A DNA stretch of 28,743 nt from a virus (taxonomy: Duplodnaviria; Heunggongvirae; Uroviricota; Caudoviricetes), in IMG/VR virus record IMGVR_UViG_2711768054_000001. One strand, written 5' to 3'. Positions 420 through 16,390 of the stretch are shown piece after piece (the first letter of the stretch is position 1; the number at the start of each line of letters is the position of its first letter). The notes under the pieces are model-generated. The model saw only the letters and a program-made list of their open reading frames with translations, had not been told where the DNA came from and did not search any database. A program made the translations under genes and the position numbers.

Positions 420-2138
420 ATGATTTTTAGGGATAGCTTGAGAGTATTTCCTTATGGTCGAGTAGATAATGATTTCTTCCAGATAGAAGAAAGACGTTCA
501 TGGAATGCAGGGCGATATTATTGGTCTAATAGAAGGATTTTTGGTTATATTGGAATTACTCAATCCAGTAATAAAGAGCTGAAAGATAAGTCGGGGAGAG
601 AGGGATTCATAAGAAACCAGGCTGCAAGAGAACTGAAAACTATTATATCTAATTTGTTAACTGAACTTGCTGATAGATTTTTTGGTTCACGTTCTGATGA
701 CCGTAAAGAGCTTTTAGAACAAGTTAAGCGTGAAAAAGAGTTAAGAAAATCTGCTCAACAACAAGCTCGAAAATCAACACAAAAAAGTTTTTCAGAAGCT
801 TTGAAGAATCAGACACCAGTTCTTGATGCTTCCTTGGAGGCTGTTAAAAGGCTGAAAACTAAGCTTGATAAAACTGATGGTTCGTTAGATTTAAACTATC
901 TTAAAATTATAGACAGTGATCTTACAAACTTAGATGCGTTGCGCAGTGAAATTAAAACGCCTATCAAACCTCCAAAACTTGGAATGTATGAAGAGAAATA
1001 TAGAGACTACAGAGATAAATTTAATGAGTTCTCTGCGTATATTCTACAAATGAAGTTAGCAATTAATAAACTTGATTCTGAATTAAATAAACTTGAGCCT
1101 TCATTGTCAGCGAAAAATCACCTTGAAAAAAATCAAGGTATTATTAATTCTAAACTAACTAAGTTTAATAACACGATAGAGGAGAAGATACATTCTCTTT
1201 TAAAAAAATGGGCCGATGAAATAAAGGTTGATCGAAGTGATTATTATGCTAAAACTATATCAGTTGTTGATTCAATAGATAATGATTCACAAATTGAAAA
1301 TGTGTTTAATTTGCTCGATAGTTTATATGTTGAGTCAGTTGATACCCTAACTTTCAAATATCAATCAATAATAAAAGGTCTCGATAGATTATTTGAAGGT
1401 ATAAACTTAGATTCAGCATTCTCATTATCTGAAGAAGAACGCTCATATTTTGAAGAAAAAGCTAAAAGTTTAAACGCGCTTGCACAGTTAGGTATTAGTG
1501 TTGAGATAATATCTCATGAACTTGAAGAAATGGATTCTATGGTAACCAGAGGACTAAACTCTCTTCCTACTTCTGTAAAAGAACACCCTGGTTTTTCATT
1601 GGCGTTAAATGCTCACAGATCGCTTACTCAACAAATACGTTTCTTATCACCTTTGAAAATATCAGGTTATCAATCCAGGCAGAGAATAACTGGAAAAAAT
1701 ATCATGGATTATGTCCTGAAGTTCTTTGGGGAGCGTTTCGAACGGCAACGAATAACTATTGAATTTAGTGAAGAGTTTAAGCAAATCGCAATAACAGATA
1801 TACCATCAAGGATCTATCCTGTTTTTACTAATATTATCAACAATGCAATGTATTGGGTCAGTCTGTCAAATAATAGGCTCATAAAGATTGGTTTTGTGAA
1901 TTCTTTGGTTATCATAGCAAATTCTGGTCCGGCAATTGATACCGATGATATCCCGCGACTATTTGAACTATTTTATAGCAAAAGAGCAAATGGACATGGG
2001 GTAGGTCTGTATCTATGTCGAGAAAACCTTGCTGTTGCACATCATAAAATATGGTATTCAGAACCTGATGAAGGCGATAACTATTTAATAAAAGATGGCG
2101 CTAATTTTGTGATCCAGTTCAATGGAGTGGAGTTCTAA
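420..2138 (+). CDS. Histidine-kinase-like ATPase (DHp + HATPase_c), apparently 5-prime truncated by the IS3 insertion
   Basis: ORF of 572 aa. Putative H-box ISVEIISHELEEMDSM, N-box NIINNAMYW and G-box GHGVGLYLCRENLA near the C-terminus; the N-terminal 330 aa are K/E-rich and look coiled-coil. The reading frame stays open upstream from 420 back to 294, right at the IS3 end, and there is no convincing RBS before the ATG at 420. GC content is visibly low. Confidence 0.55.
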   Translation: MIFRDSLRVFPYGRVDNDFFQIEERRSWNAGRYYWSNRRIFGYIGITQSSNKELKDKSGREGFIRNQAARELKTIISNLLTELADRFFGSRSDDRKELLEQVKREKELRKSAQQQARKSTQKSFSEALKNQTPVLDASLEAVKRLKTKLDKTDGSLDLNYLKIIDSDLTNLDALRSEIKTPIKPPKLGMYEEKYRDYRDKFNEFSAYILQMKLAINKLDSELNKLEPSLSAKNHLEKNQGIINSKLTKFNNTIEEKIHSLLKKWADEIKVDRSDYYAKTISVVDSIDNDSQIENVFNLLDSLYVESVDTLTFKYQSIIKGLDRLFEGINLDSAFSLSEEERSYFEEKAKSLNALAQLGISVEIISHELEEMDSMVTRGLNSLPTSVKEHPGFSLALNAHRSLTQQIRFLSPLKISGYQSRQRITGKNIMDYVLKFFGERFERQRITIEFSEEFKQIAITDIPSRIYPVFTNIINNAMYWVSLSNNRLIKIGFVNSLVIIANSGPAIDTDDIPRLFELFYSKRANGHGVGLYLCRENLAVAHHKIWYSEPDEGDNYLIKDGANFVIQFNGVEF

Positions 2139-2139
2139 T

Positions 2140-3888
2140 ATGACAGTGGCAAATTATAATTCTCTTGTCCAGAAAACTTTCTGCGAAAATGCAATTCGTT
2201 CCGTTGTCATGATTGATGACGATTTTCTGACGTATTCTGAATCAATCAGGGCGTTGAATAACGAAGTTGATTTAGACTACAACAAAATTGACTCATCTAA
2301 ACGAGCCGCTACTCTTGAGAGCTTTTTTCAATCTAAAAATATGATTTGTGATGTTGACAATGGTTCTGTTAATTTCGATGTGGATCGGATTAGAAAATCA
2401 GATCTTATTATTGTAGATTATCATCTTGATAATAATGCACCTGATAAAACACTTAAACTATTACAAGATTTGAAAGACTCCGATCATTTAAATATGGTTG
2501 TAATATATACTAGAGAGAATTTAGAAACGGTTTGGATGCAGATATCATCGACTCTCAAAGGTGCTCTGGATATCAACAGCTTGATCATTGACTACGATAA
2601 TGAAGATGTCCAAAGTTATTGGGAAGACGTTGTATTACCGAACTTAAATGATAATGGTAATAAAGCTCTCACAAGAGATGAAACAATAGCCTATATTAAA
2701 GACAGTAAGCCTTGTAGAAGAATTAAAAGATTAATACATGATGATGCTGTGTTGGAGGATCAAAAGGATAAAAACTTCATTGCAAAAATGATTGCAGAAT
2801 ATGCTGTGTCTAGAAATGCAATTATTTCTAGCAACACATCTGGCAATGTCATTCGGGGTGATGAAAGCGGAGTAAAATGGATTCAATGTGGTAATATCTT
2901 TGTCTCCCTATTTCATAAGGTTCAAGATGATCATGAAAACGATGGAGATAGGATTTGGCAAACTCTCAATGATTCTCTCATTGAATGGAAACCATCTTAT
3001 TATCAGTTAATAAAATCTGAAATTCAGAATGCAATCGAAGCTGAGGCTTTATCTTTTGTAAATCATTTGGCTAACGATCATTACGGTCAAGCTGCGTGGT
3101 TAAATGAGATATTAAAATCAGACTCGCCTGATATTAGATGTAGAAATATTGACTTTGTATTTGGTAATTTATCAGAAGAGCTTTATCAAAGACTTAAAAA
3201 TAATAATACGCTGGATGAATTTATCAAAAGTGTTTTTGATAGCTATTCAAATGAATACGCTAACAGCGGAGTTGCTGCATTGCTCCAATATTGCTCTTCA
3301 AAAATGGATCTGCCATCAAATAATGATACTTATCACGAAATGTATCATGCTTTAAATATGAATTTGTCTTCAAAGAATTTTGAAGATGGTCATATTTCTA
3401 CTGGCACTATTTTCTTTGATACAGAGTCGAACAAATGGTATTTATGTGTATCTGCGGCATGTGATTTGGTTCCTACTCAGGGTAACGACCCTCACCATGT
3501 AAGATTAAGTCCGCACAGGCTCATTAAAGTTCTGGAGCTTTTTAACGCCAGTCAGAGTAAAGCATTGCCATTTGCTGAACATTCGAAATATATATATGTA
3601 ATGCATAAAAATCAAAGAAAATATCTCTCTATTTTCGAAGGGGATAAAACGCTTCCTGTTGTTGATTATATGGTGGTGTTGAATCATGGAACAACAGTTG
3701 ATGGCGAAGAAAAAAATATTATTTCTGCCGTGTTTTTAAGTAATATGGATGGCAACGTGCAAAATGTTCCTGTCCGACTCAAACTTAAATCTCAACTGAG
3801 AACTGGTTATGCAGAAAGATATCAGGCTATAGCGTCTCAGTATAGCTCAAGGATTGGTGTGGATTATGTATCAATGATGCTACCATAA
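2140..3888 (+). CDS. Receiver (REC) domain protein with a ~450-aa C-terminal domain of unknown function
   Basis: N-terminus carries the response-regulator receiver signature: VVMIDDDF (acidic pair), LIIVDYHLD (putative phospho-acceptor Asp), MVVIYTRE (conserved Thr). RBS GGAGTGGAG at 2124-2132; ATG at 2140 lies one base after the upstream stop, suggesting translational coupling. AT-rich. No DNA-binding output domain recognisable. Confidence 0.6.
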   Translation: MTVANYNSLVQKTFCENAIRSVVMIDDDFLTYSESIRALNNEVDLDYNKIDSSKRAATLESFFQSKNMICDVDNGSVNFDVDRIRKSDLIIVDYHLDNNAPDKTLKLLQDLKDSDHLNMVVIYTRENLETVWMQISSTLKGALDINSLIIDYDNEDVQSYWEDVVLPNLNDNGNKALTRDETIAYIKDSKPCRRIKRLIHDDAVLEDQKDKNFIAKMIAEYAVSRNAIISSNTSGNVIRGDESGVKWIQCGNIFVSLFHKVQDDHENDGDRIWQTLNDSLIEWKPSYYQLIKSEIQNAIEAEALSFVNHLANDHYGQAAWLNEILKSDSPDIRCRNIDFVFGNLSEELYQRLKNNNTLDEFIKSVFDSYSNEYANSGVAALLQYCSSKMDLPSNNDTYHEMYHALNMNLSSKNFEDGHISTGTIFFDTESNKWYLCVSAACDLVPTQGNDPHHVRLSPHRLIKVLELFNASQSKALPFAEHSKYIYVMHKNQRKYLSIFEGDKTLPVVDYMVVLNHGTTVDGEEKNIISAVFLSNMDGNVQNVPVRLKLKSQLRTGYAERYQAIASQYSSRIGVDYVSMMLP

Positions 3889-3959: not shown

Positions 3960-4376
3960 TTATTTTTGTTTAAGTCTTCTAAGCTTCATGCATTCTAATG
4001 AGAATAATAATAGAGTTGTGCTGTATATAAAGCCAGAGTTAGTTAATAACTTTAAATTTAATGCTTCAGGATTTTCACTGAGAAAGTGAAAGGCATAAAC
4101 TAAGTATACAGCTAAAGTAGCCGTTCCAATTGTTGGTCCAATATCGCCTTGATCATGAGGTTCAAGGTTTACATTGAACTTGAAGATTAGCCATTCAAAT
4201 CCCCAAGTAAAAAAAACAACTAATATCATGGCTGCGAATAATTTCGCGATGTTATCTGCTGATGGATTCATCAGAACAGATTGTTTCTGAAAAAATTCAC
4301 AAAGTGAGAGTCCGAAAAAAATAAAAAAAAGTGGTCTGGAACTAAATTTTTCAAAAACTTTGAATAGGGTTTCCAT
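3960..4376 (-). CDS. Small multi-pass membrane protein (138 aa), unknown function
   Basis: ATG at 4376 preceded on the minus strand by RBS AAGGTAAAG; translation shows about four hydrophobic helices (LFFIFFGLSL, AAMILVVFFTWGF, TATLAVYLVYAF, FIYSTTLLLF); AT-rich. Confidence 0.5.
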   Translation of the reverse strand: METLFKVFEKFSSRPLFFIFFGLSLCEFFQKQSVLMNPSADNIAKLFAAMILVVFFTWGFEWLIFKFNVNLEPHDQGDIGPTIGTATLAVYLVYAFHFLSENPEALNLKLLTNSGFIYSTTLLLFSLECMKLRRLKQK

Positions 4377-4414: not shown

Positions 4415-5644
4415 TTAGGCTACCAGAGCATTTGATCTTTGAGCTTGAACGTAATCACTCCACCATTGCATCAAACTCTGTCGCTCTATCAGATATTCTG
4501 CACGATTGTATGCTGCGATAATTTCATCTTTTTTCGAGTGGGCAAGCGCTGCCTCAAGAACTTCAGCTCTGAATTTACCAGACTCCTCTGCCGCTGTTCG
4601 TGCAATAGAACGCATACCGTGAGCTACAAGCTCGCCTCCGAACCCCATTCGGATGATAGCTGCGTTGGCTGTTTGTTCATGCATATGATTAAGAGGCGCT
4701 TTTATGCTGGGGAAAACCCATTCTCTATGCCCACTTATTGATTTCATTAATTCAAGGATGCGCAAAGCTTCTTTACTCAAAGGAACTTTGTGAAGCTTTT
4801 TCATTTTCATGAAATCAGCAGGAATGTTCCAAATGCTGTTGGTTGTATCAATATCAGACCACCTTGCGCGAACGGCTTCACCCGGACGAACCCATGTCAA
4901 CAATTGCCATTCAATTAGCATACGTGTTTCCAACCGGATTGACGCATTCGTCAAAGATTCCATAAACCTTGGCAATTCGCTTGGGGGAAGGGCAGGCATA
5001 TTTTGCTTTTTTGGTTTACTGAATCTTTGACCAAGGTTGTCAGCCGGGTTGAACTCAATAAGTTCTTCAGTAGCTGCCCACCGGAAGATTTCATTCAGAC
5101 GTGAAATGATACGGCGTAGAGTTTCCAATACGCCTCGTTGCTCAATAGGATCAAGGTGTTGTTTTAAGAGCTTAGGTCGGATCTCATTGATAGGGACATT
5201 ACCCAGACCGGGAAAGACATTTCTCTCTAAGCTGCGCCAGATGTCTGCTGCATGGTCTTGTGAGATACCTGATGTCTTTACCTTCTCATCTAACCATTTC
5301 CGCGCTACGGCTTGGAGAGTGTGCTCAGTAGCACTCTTTAATGCCTTCGCCTTATCGTTGTTATGGATTTGGGGATCAACACCATTTGCCAGAAAGGAGA
5401 GATATTCATCACGTAAGGCTCTGGCTCTTGCAAGGGTAAGGTGAGGATATGTCCCAAGGCTCATTTTGGTTCTTTTCTTGCTCACTGGTACTGCATACCT
5501 GAAATACCAATTTTTCTTGCCTCCTTTCGCCAAAGGAGCGATTCGTAGAATCAGACCATCACCGTCAAACAAGTTGATTTCTTTATCGGCTGGCTTGGTG
5601 CTTTTGATTTCAGTGTCAGTGAGCTTCTTAGCGATTTTTGCCAT
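4415..5644 (-). CDS. int: P4/CP4-57-family tyrosine integrase
   Basis: Translation MAKIAKKLTDTEIKSTKPADKEINLFDGDGLILRIAPLAKGGKKNWYFRY... has the typical P4-type integrase N-terminus, and the C-terminal half contains the R...H..R...Y catalytic region (HGMRSIARTAAEE, EAALAHS, Y in AAYNRAEY). I take the ATG at 5644 as the start; the ORF-track start at 5686 would add a GPK/GPT-repeat extension encoded by GGACCC DNA repeats. Confidence 0.85.
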   Translation of the reverse strand: MAKIAKKLTDTEIKSTKPADKEINLFDGDGLILRIAPLAKGGKKNWYFRYAVPVSKKRTKMSLGTYPHLTLARARALRDEYLSFLANGVDPQIHNNDKAKALKSATEHTLQAVARKWLDEKVKTSGISQDHAADIWRSLERNVFPGLGNVPINEIRPKLLKQHLDPIEQRGVLETLRRIISRLNEIFRWAATEELIEFNPADNLGQRFSKPKKQNMPALPPSELPRFMESLTNASIRLETRMLIEWQLLTWVRPGEAVRARWSDIDTTNSIWNIPADFMKMKKLHKVPLSKEALRILELMKSISGHREWVFPSIKAPLNHMHEQTANAAIIRMGFGGELVAHGMRSIARTAAEESGKFRAEVLEAALAHSKKDEIIAAYNRAEYLIERQSLMQWWSDYVQAQRSNALVA

Positions 5645-5809
5645 TTTGGGACCCTCGGTTTTTGGACCCTTCTTAGTGGGTCCCATTCAGGGTGCCATAA
5701 CTCGTAGTTCTCAGCAATTCTCACTGGACGACAATAGACGTAAAAAAGCCCGCAGAGCTTGTGCTGTGTGGGCTTAGTAGACTTCATTGAACTTCAAACA
5801 ACTAAAAAG

Positions 5810-5970: not shown

Positions 5971-6954
5971 CTAATTCCTATCAGCAGGTAGAATTGCTGG
6001 GTAGAGCTTAGAGCAATCATTGCCATAGTCAGGGATAAAGTCCCATAGCCCTTTTGGCGTTTGGAAGACCTCAGGGCTTAAGCCAATCAGCATATAAACA
6101 TGAACTAACAGCTCGCGCAATCCAGTGACCATTTGCTTTATTTGTTTTTCATCAGAGAAAGAAGTGGTGAAGGGTTTTTCTTCAATGGAGTCAAAAAGAA
6201 TAAACTCATGTTTTTCATATCGATAGTCGATCCCTAATTCTCTGCAAAGTTGGATAATATTGATTTCGAGCATTTGAAGGGAAATCACTTGGATATCATA
6301 AGAAGTCTCTTTGTTGTAACAGCTTTTAATAGCTTTGTTGATATTCTTATAATAATCTTGAACTCTACCCATAAATAATGAACTTATTTCTTTGCTATAG
6401 CCTTCTTCAATAGAGGATTTTGTAAAAATATTCATGTAAAGAATATAAGGGTGAGAAATGGAAAGTTCTATATATTTTTTTCCATCATCGTGTTCGGTAA
6501 ACTCTCTACTAACGATAAATGAAGGGACGGTTTTAAAAATATCGGCATAACTCTTCTGGTGGGCATAAAATGAATCAGATTTATTTTTTGCTTTTACCAG
6601 CTCTATTTGATGCTCTGTCCTTGAAAGCTGCGTCTCTGTTTGAATGGTCCTGTGAATATTCTTAACTATAGCTCCAAGAGGTACTGAACTGGCTAGCAGC
6701 ATTAGAGGGAATTTACTGATTTCGTAAAAGCGAGTATAGCCGTGGGCACTTAACACCGGGACCTTGCCCCACCATGCGAAAATCCCAAAATAAAAGAATG
6801 ATAATACTGGTATTCCGATTGATAACCAGAATAATTTCTGTTTTATAAGGTTTTGTTCATTTAATAAATACCACTTGTATTTATATGTTAAATACAATAT
6901 GTATATTAACATTACAACATAGAACATAATGCCAATTGATGAATAAAGGGTCAT
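5971..6954 (-). CDS. Membrane protein of unknown function (327 aa); AT-rich cargo gene downstream of the P2-type integrase
   Basis: N-terminal hydrophobic helices (IGIMFYVVMLIYILYL, LFWLSIGIPVLSFFYFGIFAWWG, LMLLASSVPLGAIV) followed by a ~220-aa soluble domain. The start ATG (6954-6952, minus strand) overlaps the int stop (6953-6951) as ATGA. GC content is clearly lower than the flanking phage genes. Confidence 0.6.
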   Translation of the reverse strand: MTLYSSIGIMFYVVMLIYILYLTYKYKWYLLNEQNLIKQKLFWLSIGIPVLSFFYFGIFAWWGKVPVLSAHGYTRFYEISKFPLMLLASSVPLGAIVKNIHRTIQTETQLSRTEHQIELVKAKNKSDSFYAHQKSYADIFKTVPSFIVSREFTEHDDGKKYIELSISHPYILYMNIFTKSSIEEGYSKEISSLFMGRVQDYYKNINKAIKSCYNKETSYDIQVISLQMLEINIIQLCRELGIDYRYEKHEFILFDSIEEKPFTTSFSDEKQIKQMVTGLRELLVHVYMLIGLSPEVFQTPKGLWDFIPDYGNDCSKLYPAILPADRN

Positions 6955-7979
6955 GCTTTTTTCCAGTCTAATTTGTAAAGTGGATTTTTTGTTACAGCAT
7001 CTTCCAAGTGATCAGGGGCAAAGTGAGCGTAAACCATCGTCATTTTTATATCAGCATGGCCCAGAATATCGCGCAGTACCAGTATATTTCCGCCGTTCAT
7101 CATAAAATGGCTGGCGAATGTATGGCGCAGTACGTGGGTGCACTGGCCCTCTGGCAGTTCGATACCGGCTCGCTTTACTGCACGCTCAAAGGATTTTCTG
7201 CATGGGGTAAATAATCTCCCCCTGTTTTTAGGTAGTTCGTCATACAGTTCTTGAGATATTGGAACGGTTCGGTTTTTTTTACCTTTGGTCTTGGTATAAG
7301 TAATGCGATATTTTGATAACTGATGCCCTTGCAGGTTTTCTGCTTCACTCCATCGGGCACCAGTTGCTAGGCATATTTTTGCAATCATCAACAGACTGGG
7401 ACTCTGAGAATCAGCACAGGCATCCAGTAGGCGTTTAATTTCTTCCGGGGTCAGGAATGCTAGTTCACCCTCAGCGATTTTAAATGTTGGCAGCCCGACG
7501 AGAGGATTTGGTGCTGACCAGTGGCCTAGTTTTTTCAATGTGCCGAAAACCGATGATAGGTTACGTTGCTCAAGATTCACCGTGCGTGGTTTTACTGGCG
7601 ACATTAGTGTGCCGTCTTCGTTACGAAGGTCACCTTTTAACCGTGCTTCGCGGTATTTCGTAAAGTCTCCGGCTGTCAGTTCTGAGGCGATGGGGTCGCC
7701 TAGACCATTACAGATAATTCTAAGTTTCGCCATGAGGCGCTTGGGGTCTGCGAGTGTCTGACCATACAGGGAATACCAAAGCTCAATTAACTCTGATAGG
7801 CGTCGCCGATCATCCTTTTCACCCAACCACGGTTTTTTATTCACTTCTTCCATTGTGAAGCTTTCAAACGCAATGGCTTCGCCTTTCGTGGCAAATTGCT
7901 TACGCACGCGCTTGCCATTGCGTCCATTGGGATAGCACTCACACAACCATTTTCCGTTCGGCTGTTTTCTGATGGTCAT
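6951..7979 (-). CDS. int: P2-type tyrosine integrase
   Basis: 342 aa, MTIRKQPNGKWLCECYPNGRNGKRVRKQFATKGEAIAFE...; C-terminus has ARWSE...HVLRHTFASHFMMNGGNILVLRDILGHADIKMTMVYAH (R-H-R-Y motifs). Size and sequence resemble P2/186 Int. Confidence 0.9.
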   Translation of the reverse strand: MTIRKQPNGKWLCECYPNGRNGKRVRKQFATKGEAIAFESFTMEEVNKKPWLGEKDDRRRLSELIELWYSLYGQTLADPKRLMAKLRIICNGLGDPIASELTAGDFTKYREARLKGDLRNEDGTLMSPVKPRTVNLEQRNLSSVFGTLKKLGHWSAPNPLVGLPTFKIAEGELAFLTPEEIKRLLDACADSQSPSLLMIAKICLATGARWSEAENLQGHQLSKYRITYTKTKGKKNRTVPISQELYDELPKNRGRLFTPCRKSFERAVKRAGIELPEGQCTHVLRHTFASHFMMNGGNILVLRDILGHADIKMTMVYAHFAPDHLEDAVTKNPLYKLDWKKA

Positions 7980-7980
7980 A

Positions 7981-8613
7981 TCAAAGGCTCTTAATGATTT
8001 TCAGTGCGCGGCCTACTACCTCAATGTCATCCAGGCCGCACTCAAACGATGAATCATCCTGATGCACTACTAATTTGTTTCCCGGGAGTCGAGTCAATTT
8101 AACAATGCTTTTTATCCCGTCGATATCGACTAACCACATACCATTTACTAGTGGTGTTTGGTTGCGATCTATTAAATAAGAATCACCAGAAGTAGTTACC
8201 AGCAGTAGGTTGCTTGAGTTTGAGGGGAGTATGCTGCTATCAATGATTGCTTTTCCAGCATCGATCAATAAACCACCGTTGAGAGTCGCCTTGTCAATTT
8301 CAGGAGATACTAGTTCAGAAAGAGGTATAACCTTGCTGGAGTTCACGGAATTGATATTTTTTTTGGGTTCAATGTTTGAACCTGGCTCCCCCTGTCCGGT
8401 GGTTAGCCACAGTAAAGAAACTCCTGTTTCCAAGGCGCACTGAATCACCCACTCTGCAGGAAAACTATCTCTTAAGTATCTGTTTGCCATGGTACTTTTT
8501 GATGCGCCTAAGTGATCGCAAAGTTGCTGTCTGGACTTGAAATCATAGGCTGCCATTAGTCTATGGATAGCCTCTCTTCCCCCTGTATTCTCTCCAGCCT
8601 TTACCTGTATCAT
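7981..8613 (-). CDS. CI-like immunity repressor (HTH N-terminal domain), 186-type
   Basis: 210 aa; divergent from the early operon and adjacent to int; N-terminal helix-turn-helix region (SKSTMANRYLRDSFPAEWVIQCALETGVSLLWLTTGQG); no obvious LexA-like Ser-Lys autocleavage motif. Confidence 0.7.
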   Translation of the reverse strand: MIQVKAGENTGGREAIHRLMAAYDFKSRQQLCDHLGASKSTMANRYLRDSFPAEWVIQCALETGVSLLWLTTGQGEPGSNIEPKKNINSVNSSKVIPLSELVSPEIDKATLNGGLLIDAGKAIIDSSILPSNSSNLLLVTTSGDSYLIDRNQTPLVNGMWLVDIDGIKSIVKLTRLPGNKLVVHQDDSSFECGLDDIEVVGRALKIIKSL

Positions 8614-10808: not shown

Positions 10809-11662
10809 GCACCATCCTGAAATGGGCGGGAAATAAAACCGCCATTATGTCCGAACTGAAAAAGCATCTTCCTGCTGGCCCGCGACTGGTTGAACCTTTC
10901 GCGGGTTCCTGTGCAGTGATGATGGAGACGGAGTACCCCAGCTATCTTGTTGCGGATATTAATCCTGATTTAATCAACCTCTATAAAAAGGTTGCTGCTG
11001 ATTGTGAATCATTTATATCTCGCGCCAGAGTTTTATTTGAGATCGCAAACAGGGAGGTAGCTTATTACAACATAAGGCAGGAGTTTAATTACTCAACTGA
11101 AATTACTGATTTCATGAAAGCGGTATATTTCCTGTATCTCAATCGTCACGGTTACCGTGGTTTATGTCGCTATAACAAGAGCGGGCATTTCAACATTCCC
11201 TACGGTAATTATAAAAATCCGTATTTCCCTGAAAAAGAAATTCGCGCATTTGCAGAAAAAGCCCAGCGAGCAACGTTTATCTGCGCCAGCTTTGATGAAA
11301 CGCTGGCGATGTTGAAGGCGGGGGATGTGGTGTATTGCGATCCGCCGTATGACGGTACGTTTTCCGGCTATCACACTGATGGTTTCACTGAAGATGACCA
11401 GTATCACCTGGCATCCGTTCTTGAACATCGGTCATCAGAAGGACATCCGGTCATTGTTTCTAACAGTGACACATCCCTGATCCGTTCGCTGTATCGCAAT
11501 TTTACTCACCACTATATCAAGGTAAAACGCAGCATCGGTGTGGCAGCTGGCGAGGGTAAATCAGCAACAGAAATCATTGCTGTTTCCGGGCCGCGCTGCT
11601 GGTTGGGATTTGATTATTCGCGTGGCGTGGATAGTTCTGCCGTGTACGGAGTGCGTGCATGA
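10805..11662 (+). CDS. dam: DNA adenine (N6) methyltransferase, Dam-like
   Basis: Motif I PFAGSCAV and catalytic DPPY ([12 protein letters not shown]); ATGA overlap with the upstream stop; RBS GGAGGTG. Confidence 0.85.
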
Positions 11663-14073
11663 GCCATGCTGATATGAACAACTGCAGCGGCTTTAACGAG
11701 GCCGCCGCAGCATTCTCATGGAACAGCCCGAAAAAGGCTATTAACCCTTATCTGGACCCGGCGGAAGTTGCGCCGGTTTCTGCGCTTTCAAACCTGATCA
11801 CTCTGTACGCTGCCGATAACGAGCAGGAACAACTGCGCCGCGAGGCACTGAGTGATCAGGTCTGGGAGCGTTATTTCTTTAATGAATCCCGTGATCCTGT
11901 CCAACGCGAAATGGAGCAGGATAAGCTCATTAGCCGGGCAAAGCTGGCGCATGAGCAGCAGCGTTTTAATCCGGACATGGTCATACTGGCGGACGTTAAA
12001 GCCCAGCCCTCCCATATCAGCAAGCCGCTGATGCAACGTATTGAATACTTCAGCAGCCTGGGCAGGCCAAAGGCTTATTCCCGCTATTTGCGTGAGACGA
12101 TTAAGCCATGTCTGGAACGACTGGAGCATGTACGCGACAGTCAGCTATCCACTTCTTTTCGCTTTATGGCAAGCCATGAAGGGCTGGACGGCCTGCTGAT
12201 CCTGCCTGAAATGAGTCAGGATCAGGTGAAACGCCTGTCTACTCTTGTCGCTGCGCATATGAGCATGTGTCTTGATGCCGCTTGTGGTGATTTGTACGCC
12301 ACCGATGATGTTAAGCCAGAAGAAATCCGCAAGACATGGGAAAAGGTGGCAGCAGAAACCCTGCGACTGGATGTCATACCGCCTGCGTTTGAGCAACTCC
12401 GCCGGAAAAGAAACCGCCGTAAACCCGTACCCTATGAACTCATTCCGGGTTCGCTGGCGCGTATGTTGTGCGCCGACTGGTGGTATCGGAAATTATGGAA
12501 GATGCGTTGCGAATGGCGGGAAGAGCAGTTGCGTGCTGTTTGCCTGGTCAGCAAAAAAGCATCTCCCTATGTCAGCTATGAAGCCGTGATGCATAAACGT
12601 GAGCAGCGCCGTAAGTCGCTGGAGTTTTTCCGTTCTCATGAACTGGTGAACGAAGACGGCGATACGCTGGATATGGAGGACGTGGTAAACGCCAGTAGTA
12701 GCAACCCGGCGCATCGCCGCAATGAGATGATGGCATGTGTTAAAGGTCTGGAGCTTATCGCGGAAATGCGCGGTGACTGCGCCGTTTTCTACACCATCAC
12801 CTGTCCGTCACGTTTCCATTCCACGCTAAATAACGGCAGGCCCAACCCAACCTGGACAAATGCGACGGTAAGACAAAGCAGTGATTATCTGGTCGGCATG
12901 TTTGCTGCATTTCGTAAGGCGATGTACAAAGCCGGATTGCGCTGGTATGGCGTGCGGGTGGCTGAGCCGCATCATGACGGTACAGTTCACTGGCACCTGT
13001 TGTGTTTTATGCGCAAAAAAGATCGCCGCGCCATTACTGCTTTGTTGCGTAAGTTTGCCATTCGTGAAGACCGCGAGGAGCTGGGTAATAACACAGGACC
13101 ACGCTTTAAGTCTGAGCTGATAAACCCGCGCAAAGGTACGCCAACAAGCTACATCGCGAAATACATCAGTAAGAACATTGACGGGCGTGGTCTGGCTGGC
13201 GAGATCAGCAAGGAAACGGGTAAATCCCTGCGTGATAACGCTGAATACGTTAATGCCTGGGCGTCTCTTCATCGTGTTCAGCAATTCCGCTTCTTTGGCA
13301 TTCCGGGGCGTCAGGCTTACCGTGAACTGCGATTGCTGGCTGGTCAGGCGGCAAGGCAACAGGGGGACAAAAAAGCAGGTGCGGCGGTACTGGATAACCC
13401 GCGCATTGATGCCATCCTGGCTGCTGCTGATGCTGGTTGTTTTGCCACCTACATCATGAAGCAGGGCGGCGTACTGGTTCCCCGCAAATATCACCTCATC
13501 AGAACCGCTTATGAAATCAACGAAGAGCCGACCGCCTATGGCGATCACGGCATTCGTATTTATGGCATCTGGTCACCCATTGCAGAGGGCAAGATCTGCA
13601 CTCATGCAGTGAAGTGGAAAATGGTTCGTAAGGCCGTTGACGTTCAGGAGGCGGCAGCCGACCAGGGCGCTTGCGCCCCTTGGACTCGTGGCAATAACTG
13701 TCCCCTTGCTGAAAATTTGAACCAACAGGAGAAAGATAAATCAGCTGATGGGGACCCCAGAACGGACATTACCAGCATGGATGACAAGGAGTTGCACGAT
13801 TACCTGCACAGTATGAGCAAAAAAGAGCGCCGGGAACTGGCAGCAAGGTTACGCCTGGTGAAACCGAAACGGCGTAAAGACTACAAACAGCGAATTACAG
13901 ACCATCAGCGACTGCAGCTCGTGTATGAGCTGAAGTCCAGAGGATTTGATGGCAGCGAGAAAGAGGTCGATTTACTCCTTCGCGGAGGCAGTATTCCGTC
14001 AGGAGCAGGCCTGCGTATCTTCTATCGGAACCAGCGTTTGCAGGAAGATGATCAGTGGCGGAACCTGTATTAA
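11659..14073 (+). CDS. A: Replication initiation endonuclease (P2 gpA-like rolling-circle initiator)
   Basis: 804 aa; HUH-type motif TVHWHLLCF and tyrosine motif [12 protein letters not shown]; size and position match P2/186 gene A. Confidence 0.9.
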
Positions 14074-14165
14074 TTACGCGGGTTAACAATTCGTGCTCTT
14101 AATAATACCAGGCATATCAGGCTGATGAACGTAAAAAATCGTTTTACATCAGTAAGATTATTATA

Positions 14166-14185
14166 TACTGTAAATATAAACAGTG
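14166..14185. promoter_or_regulatory. LexA (SOS) box
   Basis: TACTGTAAATATAAACAGTG fits the CTGT-N8-ACAG consensus; overlaps a -10-like TATACT (14164-14169), with a -35-like TTTACA at 14143-14148. Confidence 0.6.
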
Positions 14186-14226
14186 GTTATGCATACAGCA
14201 TTGCGTGTGGTGTCATAGGAGGAAAG

Positions 14227-14415
14227 ATGCAGGACTATTTTTTGGAGTCTTTGAAGCTCCAGCGCATTGATTTTTTTCTTAAGCTTGTAGCGGCTAGTGA
14301 GTGTAGTGATGAAGAGAAGGGGCTGGCTCTGCAGTGGGTTTCTGAATTGACTGATGAACTCATGGCAAAAATCAGAACCCACGAATACAACCGCTCAATG
14401 GATGTCATCAGCTGA
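14227..14415 (+). CDS. Small protein (62 aa), first gene of the putative SOS-controlled operon (possible antirepressor N-terminal part)
   Basis: RBS AGGAGG immediately upstream of the ATG at 14227; about 40 bp downstream of the LexA box. Confidence 0.45.
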   Translation: MQDYFLESLKLQRIDFFLKLVAASECSDEEKGLALQWVSELTDELMAKIRTHEYNRSMDVIS

Positions 14416-14425
14416 GGTGACTTTT

Positions 14426-14659
14426 ATGCGCATTGAAATAATGATCGATAAAGAGCAGAAGATTAGCCAGTCTACCCTGGACGCCCTTGAATCCGAGCTT
14501 TACCGCAATCTGCGCCCCCTGTATCCCAAAACGGTAATTCGCATTCGCAAAGGTAGCTCTAACGGTGTGGAACTAACCGGACTGCAACTGGACGAAGAAA
14601 GAAAACAAGTGATGAAAATTATGCAGAAGGTGTGGGAAGACGACAGCTGGCTGCATTAA
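14426..14659 (+). CDS. DinI-family protein (Tum-like C-terminal module)
   Basis: 77 aa, MRIEIMIDKEQKISQSTLDALESELYRNLRPLYPKTVIRIRKGSSNGVELTGLQLDEERKQVMKIMQKVWEDDSWLH, resembles E. coli DinI in length and profile (MRIEV..., acidic C-terminus ending W-x-x-D-D-W); RBS GAGGTG. Confidence 0.75.
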   Translation: MRIEIMIDKEQKISQSTLDALESELYRNLRPLYPKTVIRIRKGSSNGVELTGLQLDEERKQVMKIMQKVWEDDSWLH

Positions 14660-14794
14660 GAAACGTTGCTGGCGTCTGAACTTGCTTCTGGCGTCAGCAA
14701 GGTTGAACAACGAGCCCTTGCGAGGCGTTAGCTCTGTAGTGCATGTCTATGCCGCATGAGATCGCATGATCGTTTGAGGATCGTTTTTGCTAAG

Positions 14795-14819
14795 GCCCGC
14801 CAGAACTGGCGGGCTTTTG
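14795..14819 (+). terminator. Rho-independent terminator
   Basis: Perfect 9-bp stem gcccgccag / ctggcgggc with a 2-nt loop, followed by TTTTG. Confidence 0.55.
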
Positions 14820-14980: not shown

Positions 14981-16390
14981 ATGTCTTTTCTTGATATAAA
15001 AAAAATGAGTAAAGAGAGGTTTAATGCTTTTGTTGATTGGACCAGAATGCCAAATACTGAACTTTTAGGCTATGAGTTTGAGTGGTACTGTAGTCCGAGA
15101 GAGTTCCTGCTAGGGGCACTATTATTGGATCAAATCGATGAAGATTATAGCGGTATTGTTTTAGCAAGAGACTTAAGTGGGAGATATAGATGTATTGACC
15201 TATTTACTAGTGTTTCAGAAATGAATTCTGCACGAGCAAAACTAAAGAAATTAATGCGGAAGCATACTAAATTAAACGTAAAAGTATTTCCACAAGGTGA
15301 TGAAACTTATAAAGCAATGGATTTATTCACACCTATAGTTACACCAGATAAACTTCATCATCATTTTTCATTATTTGGTAAATACGCGAACTGGTCGCCT
15401 GCAACAGGGATAATCAAGGAAATGATGAATCATTTTGAGGATGTCGACGGGAATTTTATAGAGCAGTTTCAGACAACAGGTTTTGATGCCCGGCTATGGG
15501 AGTTATATCTTTTCGCATATTTACGAGAGGAACACTTTTGGCTAGATAGGCAGTTTAATGCTCCTGATTATGTGGCACGTAAGTATGGTAATACTATTTG
15601 CATTGAAGCTGTAACGGTTAATCCAACAGGGAATGATATTAATCAATCATCTGAAATGCTATCTGAACCTAAAAGTAAGGAAGAATTGCTAGAGAAAATA
15701 GAGAATTATATGCCGATTAAATTTGGAAGTTCTCTCTATTCTAAACTGAAAAAGAAAACTCGATACTGGGATCTAGAACATGTTAAGGGGAATCCTTTAA
15801 TTTTCGCAATTGCTGATTTTCATGAACCAAACTCTATGATTTGGTCCCATAGTGCACTTTGGCAGTATCTTTATGGTATTCGCTATGAGCATGTTAAATC
15901 TGAAGATGGATGTTACAGTTTAGCAACTAAGAAAATTATATCGCATCAATTTGAGAAAAAGGAAATTCCTTCAGGCTTTTTCTTCTTGGATGAGTCTGAA
16001 AATATTTCGGCCGTCCTTAGTTCTAATAGTGGTACTATATCGAAGTTTAATCGGATGGGAAAACTGGCTGGTTTTGGAAGAAGTGACCTTAGATTATTTA
16101 GGAGTGGTTACTGCCATGATCATGACCCAGAGGCATTATATCCAGCAGCATTTAGTTTTGAAGTGAAAGAAGGCGATATTACAGAAACATGGGCAGAAGG
16201 TTTAAATATGTATCATAATCCTAATGCTAAATATCCTGTAGATCCTGATTTATTTCCTTCAATAGCACATCATTTTCTTGAAAATGGAGAGGTTAAAAGT
16301 ATAGTGCCTGACTTTCATCCGTATACATCTATTACCATAAATGTCTTAACTCAAAATAATAAAAAACAAAAAATCAGAGTAGATGAGTAA
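14981..16390 (+). CDS. Hypothetical protein (469 aa), AT-rich cargo gene between the candidate cos site and the portal gene
   Basis: Long ORF with RBS GAGG upstream; GC content much lower than the flanking phage genes; no motif I can assign (no Walker A, no clear nuclease signature); no TM segments apparent. Confidence 0.7.
   Translation: MSFLDIKKMSKERFNAFVDWTRMPNTELLGYEFEWYCSPREFLLGALLLDQIDEDYSGIVLARDLSGRYRCIDLFTSVSEMNSARAKLKKLMRKHTKLNVKVFPQGDETYKAMDLFTPIVTPDKLHHHFSLFGKYANWSPATGIIKEMMNHFEDVDGNFIEQFQTTGFDARLWELYLFAYLREEHFWLDRQFNAPDYVARKYGNTICIEAVTVNPTGNDINQSSEMLSEPKSKEELLEKIENYMPIKFGSSLYSKLKKKTRYWDLEHVKGNPLIFAIADFHEPNSMIWSHSALWQYLYGIRYEHVKSEDGCYSLATKKIISHQFEKKEIPSGFFFLDESENISAVLSSNSGTISKFNRMGKLAGFGRSDLRLFRSGYCHDHDPEALYPAAFSFEVKEGDITETWAEGLNMYHNPNAKYPVDPDLFPSIAHHFLENGEVKSIVPDFHPYTSITINVLTQNNKKQKIRVDE

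Follow-up and report, generated by a model that had tools for sequence, protein, structure and literature searches.

The two small genes that lie directly downstream of replication gene A in this viral sequence very likely constitute a prophage's SOS operon. The prophage is P2/186-like (Peduoviridae), and its operon would have the split tumA/tumB form carried by PSP3, Fels-2 and DuoHS. According to the proposed mechanism, host LexA in an undamaged lysogen would occupy an operator lying over the -10 element, probably as two dimers, and keep the operon silent. Upon DNA damage, RecA would be activated, LexA would undergo self-cleavage and the promoter would fire. TumA, a predicted 62-amino-acid helical hairpin, would then be made and bind the non-autocleaving, 186-type CI repressor, thereby freeing the lytic promoter and allowing lytic growth. 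TumB, a DinI homologue with its own ribosome-binding site, would not be the trigger; it most likely tunes the RecA filament and its co-protease activity, and so would set how strong the SOS signal is or how long it lasts. LexA binding at this operator, a physical TumA-CI interaction in this phage and the role of TumB are what we infer from the comparisons below.

Because a split Tum and what it does have already been described for PSP3, Fels-2 and the E. coli HS prophage DuoHS, the module adds no new biology. Only two aspects are mildly new, namely a putative colicin-like double SOS box and the presence of one TumA in phages with divergent CI proteins. Coordinates throughout refer to the window, which is the whole stretch of 28,743 nucleotides that was analyzed, and the principal features are collected in Table 1.

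Table 1 Features of the putative SOS operon and its presumed target in the window
Feature	Position	Strand	Basis or remark
CI immunity repressor, presumed target of TumA	7981-8613	-	Pfam Phage_CI_repr and Phage_CI_C
A-tract (14133-14138) and -35 element TTTACA (14143-14148)	14133-14148	+	p95-like SOS promoter; conserved in 27 distinct loci
-10 region, TATACT at 14164-14169 (15-nt spacer) or TACTGT at 14166-14171 (17-nt spacer)	14164-14171	+	overlaps the LexA box
LexA (SOS) box 1, CTGTAAATATAAACAG	14168-14183	+	predicted; CTGT-N8-ACAG, overlapping the -10 region
Putative LexA box 2, GTGGTTATGCATACAG	14183-14198	+	one base in common with box 1; colicin-type double SOS box
tumA, 62-aa ORF (14227-14415) with Shine-Dalgarno AGGAGG (14217-14222)	14217-14415	+	Tum N-domain-type antirepressor by homology
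tumB, 77-aa DinI-family ORF (14426-14659) with Shine-Dalgarno GAGG (14414-14417)	14414-14659	+	GAGG overlaps the tumA stop
Stem-loop without U-run after tumB	14662-14704	+	RNA fold; similar sequence after PSP3 tumB
Probable intrinsic terminator ending the SOS operon; TTTT follows a GC-rich hairpin, GCCCGCCAG...CTGGCGGGC	14793-14819	+	RNA fold

Prophage context of the module

The window contains a P2/186-like (Peduoviridae) prophage with an integrase gene at 6951-7979 on the minus strand, an early region coding for an Apl/Cox-like excisionase, a CII-like activator and a Dam methylase, a replication protein A gene at 11659-14073 (Pfam Phage_GPA, E 4e-127), and portal, terminase and capsid genes that start from 16438. 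The CI, Apl/Cox and CII set is of the 186 type. The tumA/tumB module is located directly 3' of gene A and before the portal gene, and the p95-tum SOS operon of 186 likewise lies between gene A and portal. The absence of an autocleavage motif from the CI-like repressor, noted in the original prediction, was borne out by a Pfam search, in which the protein consisted of Phage_CI_repr and Phage_CI_C and had no Peptidase_S24 domain. A tRNA scan of the whole window detected no tRNA genes.

Other genes of the region are described here for completeness. The gene that follows the module, a 469-amino-acid ORF at 14981-16390 on the plus strand, codes for a PD-T7-1 anti-phage defense protein (PADLOC, E 1.3e-196) and had no match in Pfam. 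Its site, the variable stretch from gene A to portal, is a known defense hotspot of P2-like phages (PMC9122126, PMC9519451); related phages carry other cargo there, such as a TIR-domain protein in phage 500465-1. A second integrase (4415-5686, minus strand; Arm-DNA-bind_3, Phage_int_M and Phage_integrase domains) adjoins the P2-like integrase, and a 327-amino-acid ORF (5971-6954, minus strand) without a match in Pfam or PADLOC overlaps the stop of the P2-like int gene. Together, the second integrase and this ORF may represent a tandem island or moron cargo. Outside the P2-like prophage, at the left end of the window, two overlapping genes on the plus strand (420-3888) occur as a pair, one coding for 572 amino acids with HATPase_c and HEF_HK domains and the other for 588 amino acids with a Response_reg_2 domain; PADLOC returned no match for either.

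Predicted SOS operator and promoter

A LexA box over a promoter upstream of the 62-amino-acid ORF had been predicted, and such a box is present at 14168-14183, where it overlaps a conserved -10 region. The 16-mer CTGTAAATATAAACAG is the sole perfect CTGT-N8-ACAG in the window, and the enclosing 20-mer, TACTGTAAATATAAACAGTG, has three mismatches to the TACTG(TA)5CAGTA consensus. Chance alone would give 0.39 matches to CTGT-N8-ACAG per window, with at least one in 33 of 100 shuffles; finding one in 28.7 kb thus does not exceed chance, and the motif by itself proves nothing. The significance of the box comes from its position and conservation. Of 35 loci, 33 have a box with no more than one mismatch 5' of the ORF1 homologue (perfect in 27, one mismatch in six), with CTGT and ACAG kept and the spacer variable; the two that lack it are a contig end and a decayed copy. 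Elsewhere in the window, a LexA-like site at 4021-4036 (CTGTATATAAAGCCAG), inside an AT-rich, hydrophobic 138-amino-acid ORF on the minus strand (3960-4376), was dismissed as probably a chance occurrence, the relaxed pattern giving four matches against 1.4 expected.

A scan for consensus sigma-70 promoters called none by its criteria; the promoter was located from sequence conservation and from its likeness to p95 of 186. In 27 promoters anchored on the LexA box, TATACTGT (14164-14171) and TTTACA (14143-14148) are nearly invariant. The annotated -35 element of 186 p95, TTCACA, is the positional equivalent of TTTACA here, and its annotated -10 element, TACTGT, falls within the LexA box at the same position as in the window.

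The 27 distinct promoter regions also share a conserved element 3' of box 1, TGG-TAT--ATACAGT, which corresponds to the putative second box, GTGGTTATGCATACAG. The right half of box 2, ACAG, occurs at offset +15 in 23 of the 27 loci, and 22 of the 27 have no more than two mismatches; the left half is degenerate, reading GTGG rather than CTGT. The putative double box is seen in the window and in loci L003, L006-L027 and L037-L038. When plasmids were searched with the promoter region, small colicin plasmids and Yersinia pestis pPCP1 were matched, and the 38-nucleotide operator ATACTGTAAATATAAACAGTGGTTATGCATACAGCATT gave ungapped alignments with the regions 5' of the colicin R (cra) and pesticin (pst) genes. 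All three operators have CTGT-N8-(A/C)CAG followed by TGG...ACAG, with one base shared between the two boxes. Two LexA dimers would probably bind this putative colicin-type double box.

TumA and TumB correspond to the two segments of 186 Tum

The likeness to Tum of phage 186 that had been proposed for the module extends to ORF1 (tumA). BLASTP found no similarity between ORF1 and 186 Tum, but a Smith-Waterman alignment scored 57 against 21.3 +/- 4.0 for shuffled sequences (z of about 9), with none of 2000 shuffles reaching as high, and was ungapped and in the same register over residues 6-41 of both proteins. When a 28-sequence profile of diverse ORF1 relatives was compared with 186 Tum using hhalign, residues 3-44 of ORF1 were placed on residues 3-44 of Tum (probability 94.9%, E 4.5e-8) at about 20% identity, confirming a similarity to the Tum N-terminus. 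The two are additionally bridged in tblastn by a Yersinia phage gene annotated as "tum protein". An AlphaFold model of ORF1 is a two-helix hairpin (pLDDT 88). ORF1 matched no family in Pfam or PADLOC and was assigned in PHROGs to phrog_698, "unknown function"; a comparison with solved structures gave no match to the ORF1 family. ORF1 is 98% identical to Fels-2 STM2728 and identical to E. coli HS ECHS_RS04495 at 61 of 62 residues.

The ORF1 gene is variably delimited in sequence records. Gene callers often lengthen ORF1 to 84-101 amino acids by starting it at an upstream ATG (14125), which lies 5' of the promoter and LexA box. Records label the product "hypothetical" or "levan regulatory protein", and the RefSeq entries of E. 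coli HS and Fels-2 have the 62-amino-acid form.

ORF2 (tumB) begins 10 nucleotides past the ORF1 stop in the +1 frame relative to ORF1. Its earlier designation as a 77-amino-acid DinI-family ORF in a different frame is upheld by a full-length match to Pfam DinI (PF06183; E 6.6e-23, 81.3 bits with a cutoff of 24.2), as well as by matches to residues 71-145 of 186 Tum (41% identity, E 3e-24) and to chain A of the E. coli DinI structure 1GHH (E 2.7e-6 over residues 1-75). ORF2 is the same gene as PSP3 tumB and Fels-2 STM2726.1, and its product is 100% identical to the Fels-2 protein. Taken together, the profile comparison, the Smith-Waterman alignment and the homology of ORF2 identify ORF1 as the N-terminal segment of Tum and ORF2 as its DinI-like segment.

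A small hairpin, GTCATCAGCTGAGGTGAC, followed by TTTTAT (14404-14421) spans the tumA stop and the tumB ribosome-binding site. This hairpin could couple translation of tumB to that of tumA; it is not kept in more distant loci. The strong terminator-like hairpin downstream of tumB precedes the end (~14888) of a block of sequence common to other phages.

Conservation and origin of the split

One scan of species-representative genomes revealed a stand-alone ORF1 homologue of about 62 amino acids in 33 Enterobacterales loci from Escherichia, Citrobacter, Enterobacter, Klebsiella, Serratia, Pantoea, Erwinia and Tatumella. The length is exactly 62 amino acids in 28 of the 33. The DinI gene accompanies ORF1 at full length in 16 of these loci, is truncated in four and is absent from 13; where ORF1 and the DinI gene are both found, they are separated by 8-12 nucleotides, with frame offsets of 0, 1 or 2 and a G-rich ribosome-binding site in each gap. 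Relative to the window, dN/dS ranges from 0.04 to 0.13 for ORF1 and from 0.06 to 0.13 for ORF2, with dS mostly above 0.7 and, for ORF1, often above 1 (saturated). Both ORFs are under strong purifying selection. Within a set of 1.8 billion representative proteins, the ORF1 family forms 66 clusters, nearly all of them short, stand-alone proteins, and no fusion to DinI was found among the 66.

These data bear upon the idea, an extension of one raised in the original prediction, that a recent frameshift broke a single tum gene, leaving ORF1 dead, only the DinI-like protein functional (on host RecA) and no SOS-inducibility. The two ORFs do lie in different frames only 10 nucleotides apart, and 186 carries both parts in one 146-amino-acid protein. 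Nevertheless, the low dN/dS of ORF1 at dS values often above 1, the recurrence of the 62-amino-acid form in genomes ranging from Escherichia to Pantoea and Tatumella, the short gaps with three different frame offsets and a ribosome-binding site in each, and the stand-alone nature of nearly all family clusters are at odds with a recently broken gene. Furthermore, removing the ORF1 orthologue alone abolishes induction in E. coli HS (see below). On the basis of the selection and distribution data this pseudogene scenario was rejected, and we consider it extremely unlikely.

A related proposal is that programmed recoding, by a +1 frameshift or by read-through of the stop, yields an active, full-length, 186-like Tum from ORF1 and ORF2 together. 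The ORF2 frame is open upstream to 14354, overlapping the 3' end of ORF1, and the hairpin at 14404-14421 lies across the junction, both of which would suit recoding. Among close relatives, however, the frame relation is 0, 1 or 2, one locus has two in-frame stops, neither the junction sequence nor the hairpin is conserved, and many loci have no ORF2 at all. Because the frame relation varies and the junction is unconserved, no single recoding mechanism could be maintained, and with ORF2 often absent as well this proposal was also rejected; its probability appears close to negligible.

Outside the scanned genomes, LexA-boxed N-domain homologues without a DinI gene occur in phages ENT90, vB_YenM_324, vB_YenM_06.16-2 and ESSI2_ev040. 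Since ORF1 and the LexA box are kept in many loci that lack the DinI gene, the constant element is the LexA box together with TumA. By this comparison of sequences, the DinI part is optional and the fused form is confined to a narrow 186 clade.

Probable identity of the induction trigger

Evidence on function comes from a published experiment with a nearly identical module. In the Phollow study of the E. coli HS prophage DuoHS, a tum deletion and a lexA(Ind-) allele each abolished mitomycin C-induced lysis and virion foci (PMC11195241). At the DNA level, the HS and window modules are about 98% identical, both boxes included. According to the primer table of the preprint (PMC11195241), the deletion primers fuse ...ATAGGAGGAAAG-ATG to TGA-GGTGACTTTTATGCGCATTG, and both primer halves match the window exactly, at 14207-14229 and 14413-14435. 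Because these positions correspond to the start and stop of ORF1, the "tum" deletion of HS removed only the ORF1 orthologue and spared the DinI gene.

This deletion of a 98%-identical orthologue, together with the homology of ORF1 and ORF2 to the two parts of Tum and the 186-type CI, lends support to the earlier suggestion that the module is a 186 Tum-type induction trigger encoded as two polypeptides. It also bears on which of the two polypeptides is the trigger. Database naming would favor the DinI-like ORF2 as the real antirepressor and trigger, with ORF1 as an accessory or leader peptide: the Tum family takes its name from DinI ("RecA filament binding protein DinI"), full-length Tum falls within PHROG 189, and in one phage record the gene under the match is labeled "SOS induction modulator". 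Yet 17 loci in which ORF2 is missing or truncated (13 and four of the 33, respectively) keep ORF1 and the LexA box, the ENT90, YenM and ESSI2 phages have the N-domain homologue only, and the HS tum deletion strain retains its DinI gene but fails to induce. In addition, a passage in Lemire et al. (PMC3121763) attributes the antirepressor activity of PSP3 to the upstream gene. With ORF2 so often absent and the DinI gene of the HS deletion strain unable to restore induction, the assignment of the trigger to ORF2 was rejected and is, in our estimation, highly improbable. TumA remains the preferred trigger.

The CI repressor as presumed target of TumA

The window CI is 33% identical to 186 CI, 44% identical to DuoHS CI and about 51% identical to the Fels-2-type CI of RE2010, and is by these values of an immunity type other than those of Fels-2/RE2010 and DuoHS. 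Given that CI is only 44% and about 51% identical to its DuoHS and RE2010 counterparts, the TumA-CI pairing proposed here rests on homology and on a conserved helix-turn-helix (HTH) core. Among phages whose TumA is 98-100% identical to that of the window, CI identity to the window protein is only 41-96%. Six of these partner CIs were aligned, and the region of window residues 38-75, which comprises the HTH core, is 71-95% identical, and the C-terminal domain is 30-53% identical; for 186 CI the corresponding values are 45% and 35%. The loci compared were the window (7981-8613, minus strand), L042-L047 and L051:18700-19269. At 311-313 amino acids, the partner CIs of ST258-KPC3phi16.2 and Kp4872-2 each contain a tandem pair of HTH domains.

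This pattern is compatible with TumA contacting the DNA-binding domain of CI, and is also expected if the N-terminal domain simply evolves more slowly. We tentatively raise, as a possible if rather doubtful extension, that such a TumA may have broad specificity as an antirepressor and, instead of acting on a single cognate repressor, recognize the conserved HTH core of many 186-type CIs whose remaining sequences diverge strongly. In that case, induction of one P2-like prophage could set off, in trans, other P2-like prophages residing in the same cell, and the putative colicin-type double SOS box would impose a high threshold of damage on such trans induction.

Implications

The assignment implies that this prophage is induced by way of LexA and an antirepressor, and not through self-cleavage of the repressor. 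It also provides correct boundaries for a small gene that is often mis-called or left as "hypothetical" by annotation pipelines. These results can be of use in annotation and in engineering non-inducible lysogens.

Comparison with known systems

The operator resembles those of colicin R and pesticin, although the colicin and pesticin double boxes drive bacteriocins, whereas the window operator would drive a prophage antirepressor. It also differs from the operators of 186, PSP3 and the Pantoea/Erwinia loci, which have one LexA box where the window has a probable double box. By the description in a passage of Lemire et al. (PMC3121763), Gifsy prophages likewise pair a dinI homologue with a LexA-controlled antirepressor, but in the reverse order, with dinI first.

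The closest relatives are the modules of PSP3, Fels-2 and DuoHS, which share with the window the position downstream of gene A, the LexA box on the promoter, and an ORF of about 60 amino acids followed by a 77-amino-acid DinI-like ORF. Gene order is the same and sizes are near, at 183 and 234 nucleotides in PSP3 and 189 and 234 nucleotides, with a 10-nucleotide gap, in Fels-2. The PSP3 record describes tumA as "similar to 5' end 186 tum; UV induction of prophage" and tumB as "similar to dinI and 3' end of 186 tum", and Fels-2 STM2726.1 is annotated as similar to PSP3 TumB. The same passage of Lemire et al. (PMC3121763), citing Bunny et al. 2002, states that tum is split in two in Fels-2 and PSP3 and that the upstream gene is the antirepressor; for PSP3 tumA the claim is second-hand there, tracing to a personal communication. 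A literature search on the names tumA and tumB returned no relevant papers. Certain differences from these relatives are apparent. PSP3 TumA is strongly diverged from ORF1 (profile match E 0.0039, in the same register), PSP3 has an in-frame stop between tumA and tumB whereas the genes of the window are in different frames, and the downstream cargo, which is PD-T7-1 in the window, differs from that of PSP3, Fels-2 and DuoHS.

In 186, the SOS response derepresses the LexA-regulated p95 promoter, and Tum then sequesters CI as an anti-CI factor (PMC7708051). The window module resembles this system in its LexA-repressed promoter, as predicted here, in the order of an antirepressor segment followed by a DinI-like segment and in its 186-type CI/Apl/CII switch. 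An internal GTG start additionally gives 186 a separate DinI-like product. However, 186 Tum is one polypeptide of 146 amino acids with a linker of about 25 amino acids, whereas the window has two genes. Owing to the stop, the 10-nucleotide gap and the different frames, the module belongs to the split tumA/tumB variant and not to the fused 186 form.
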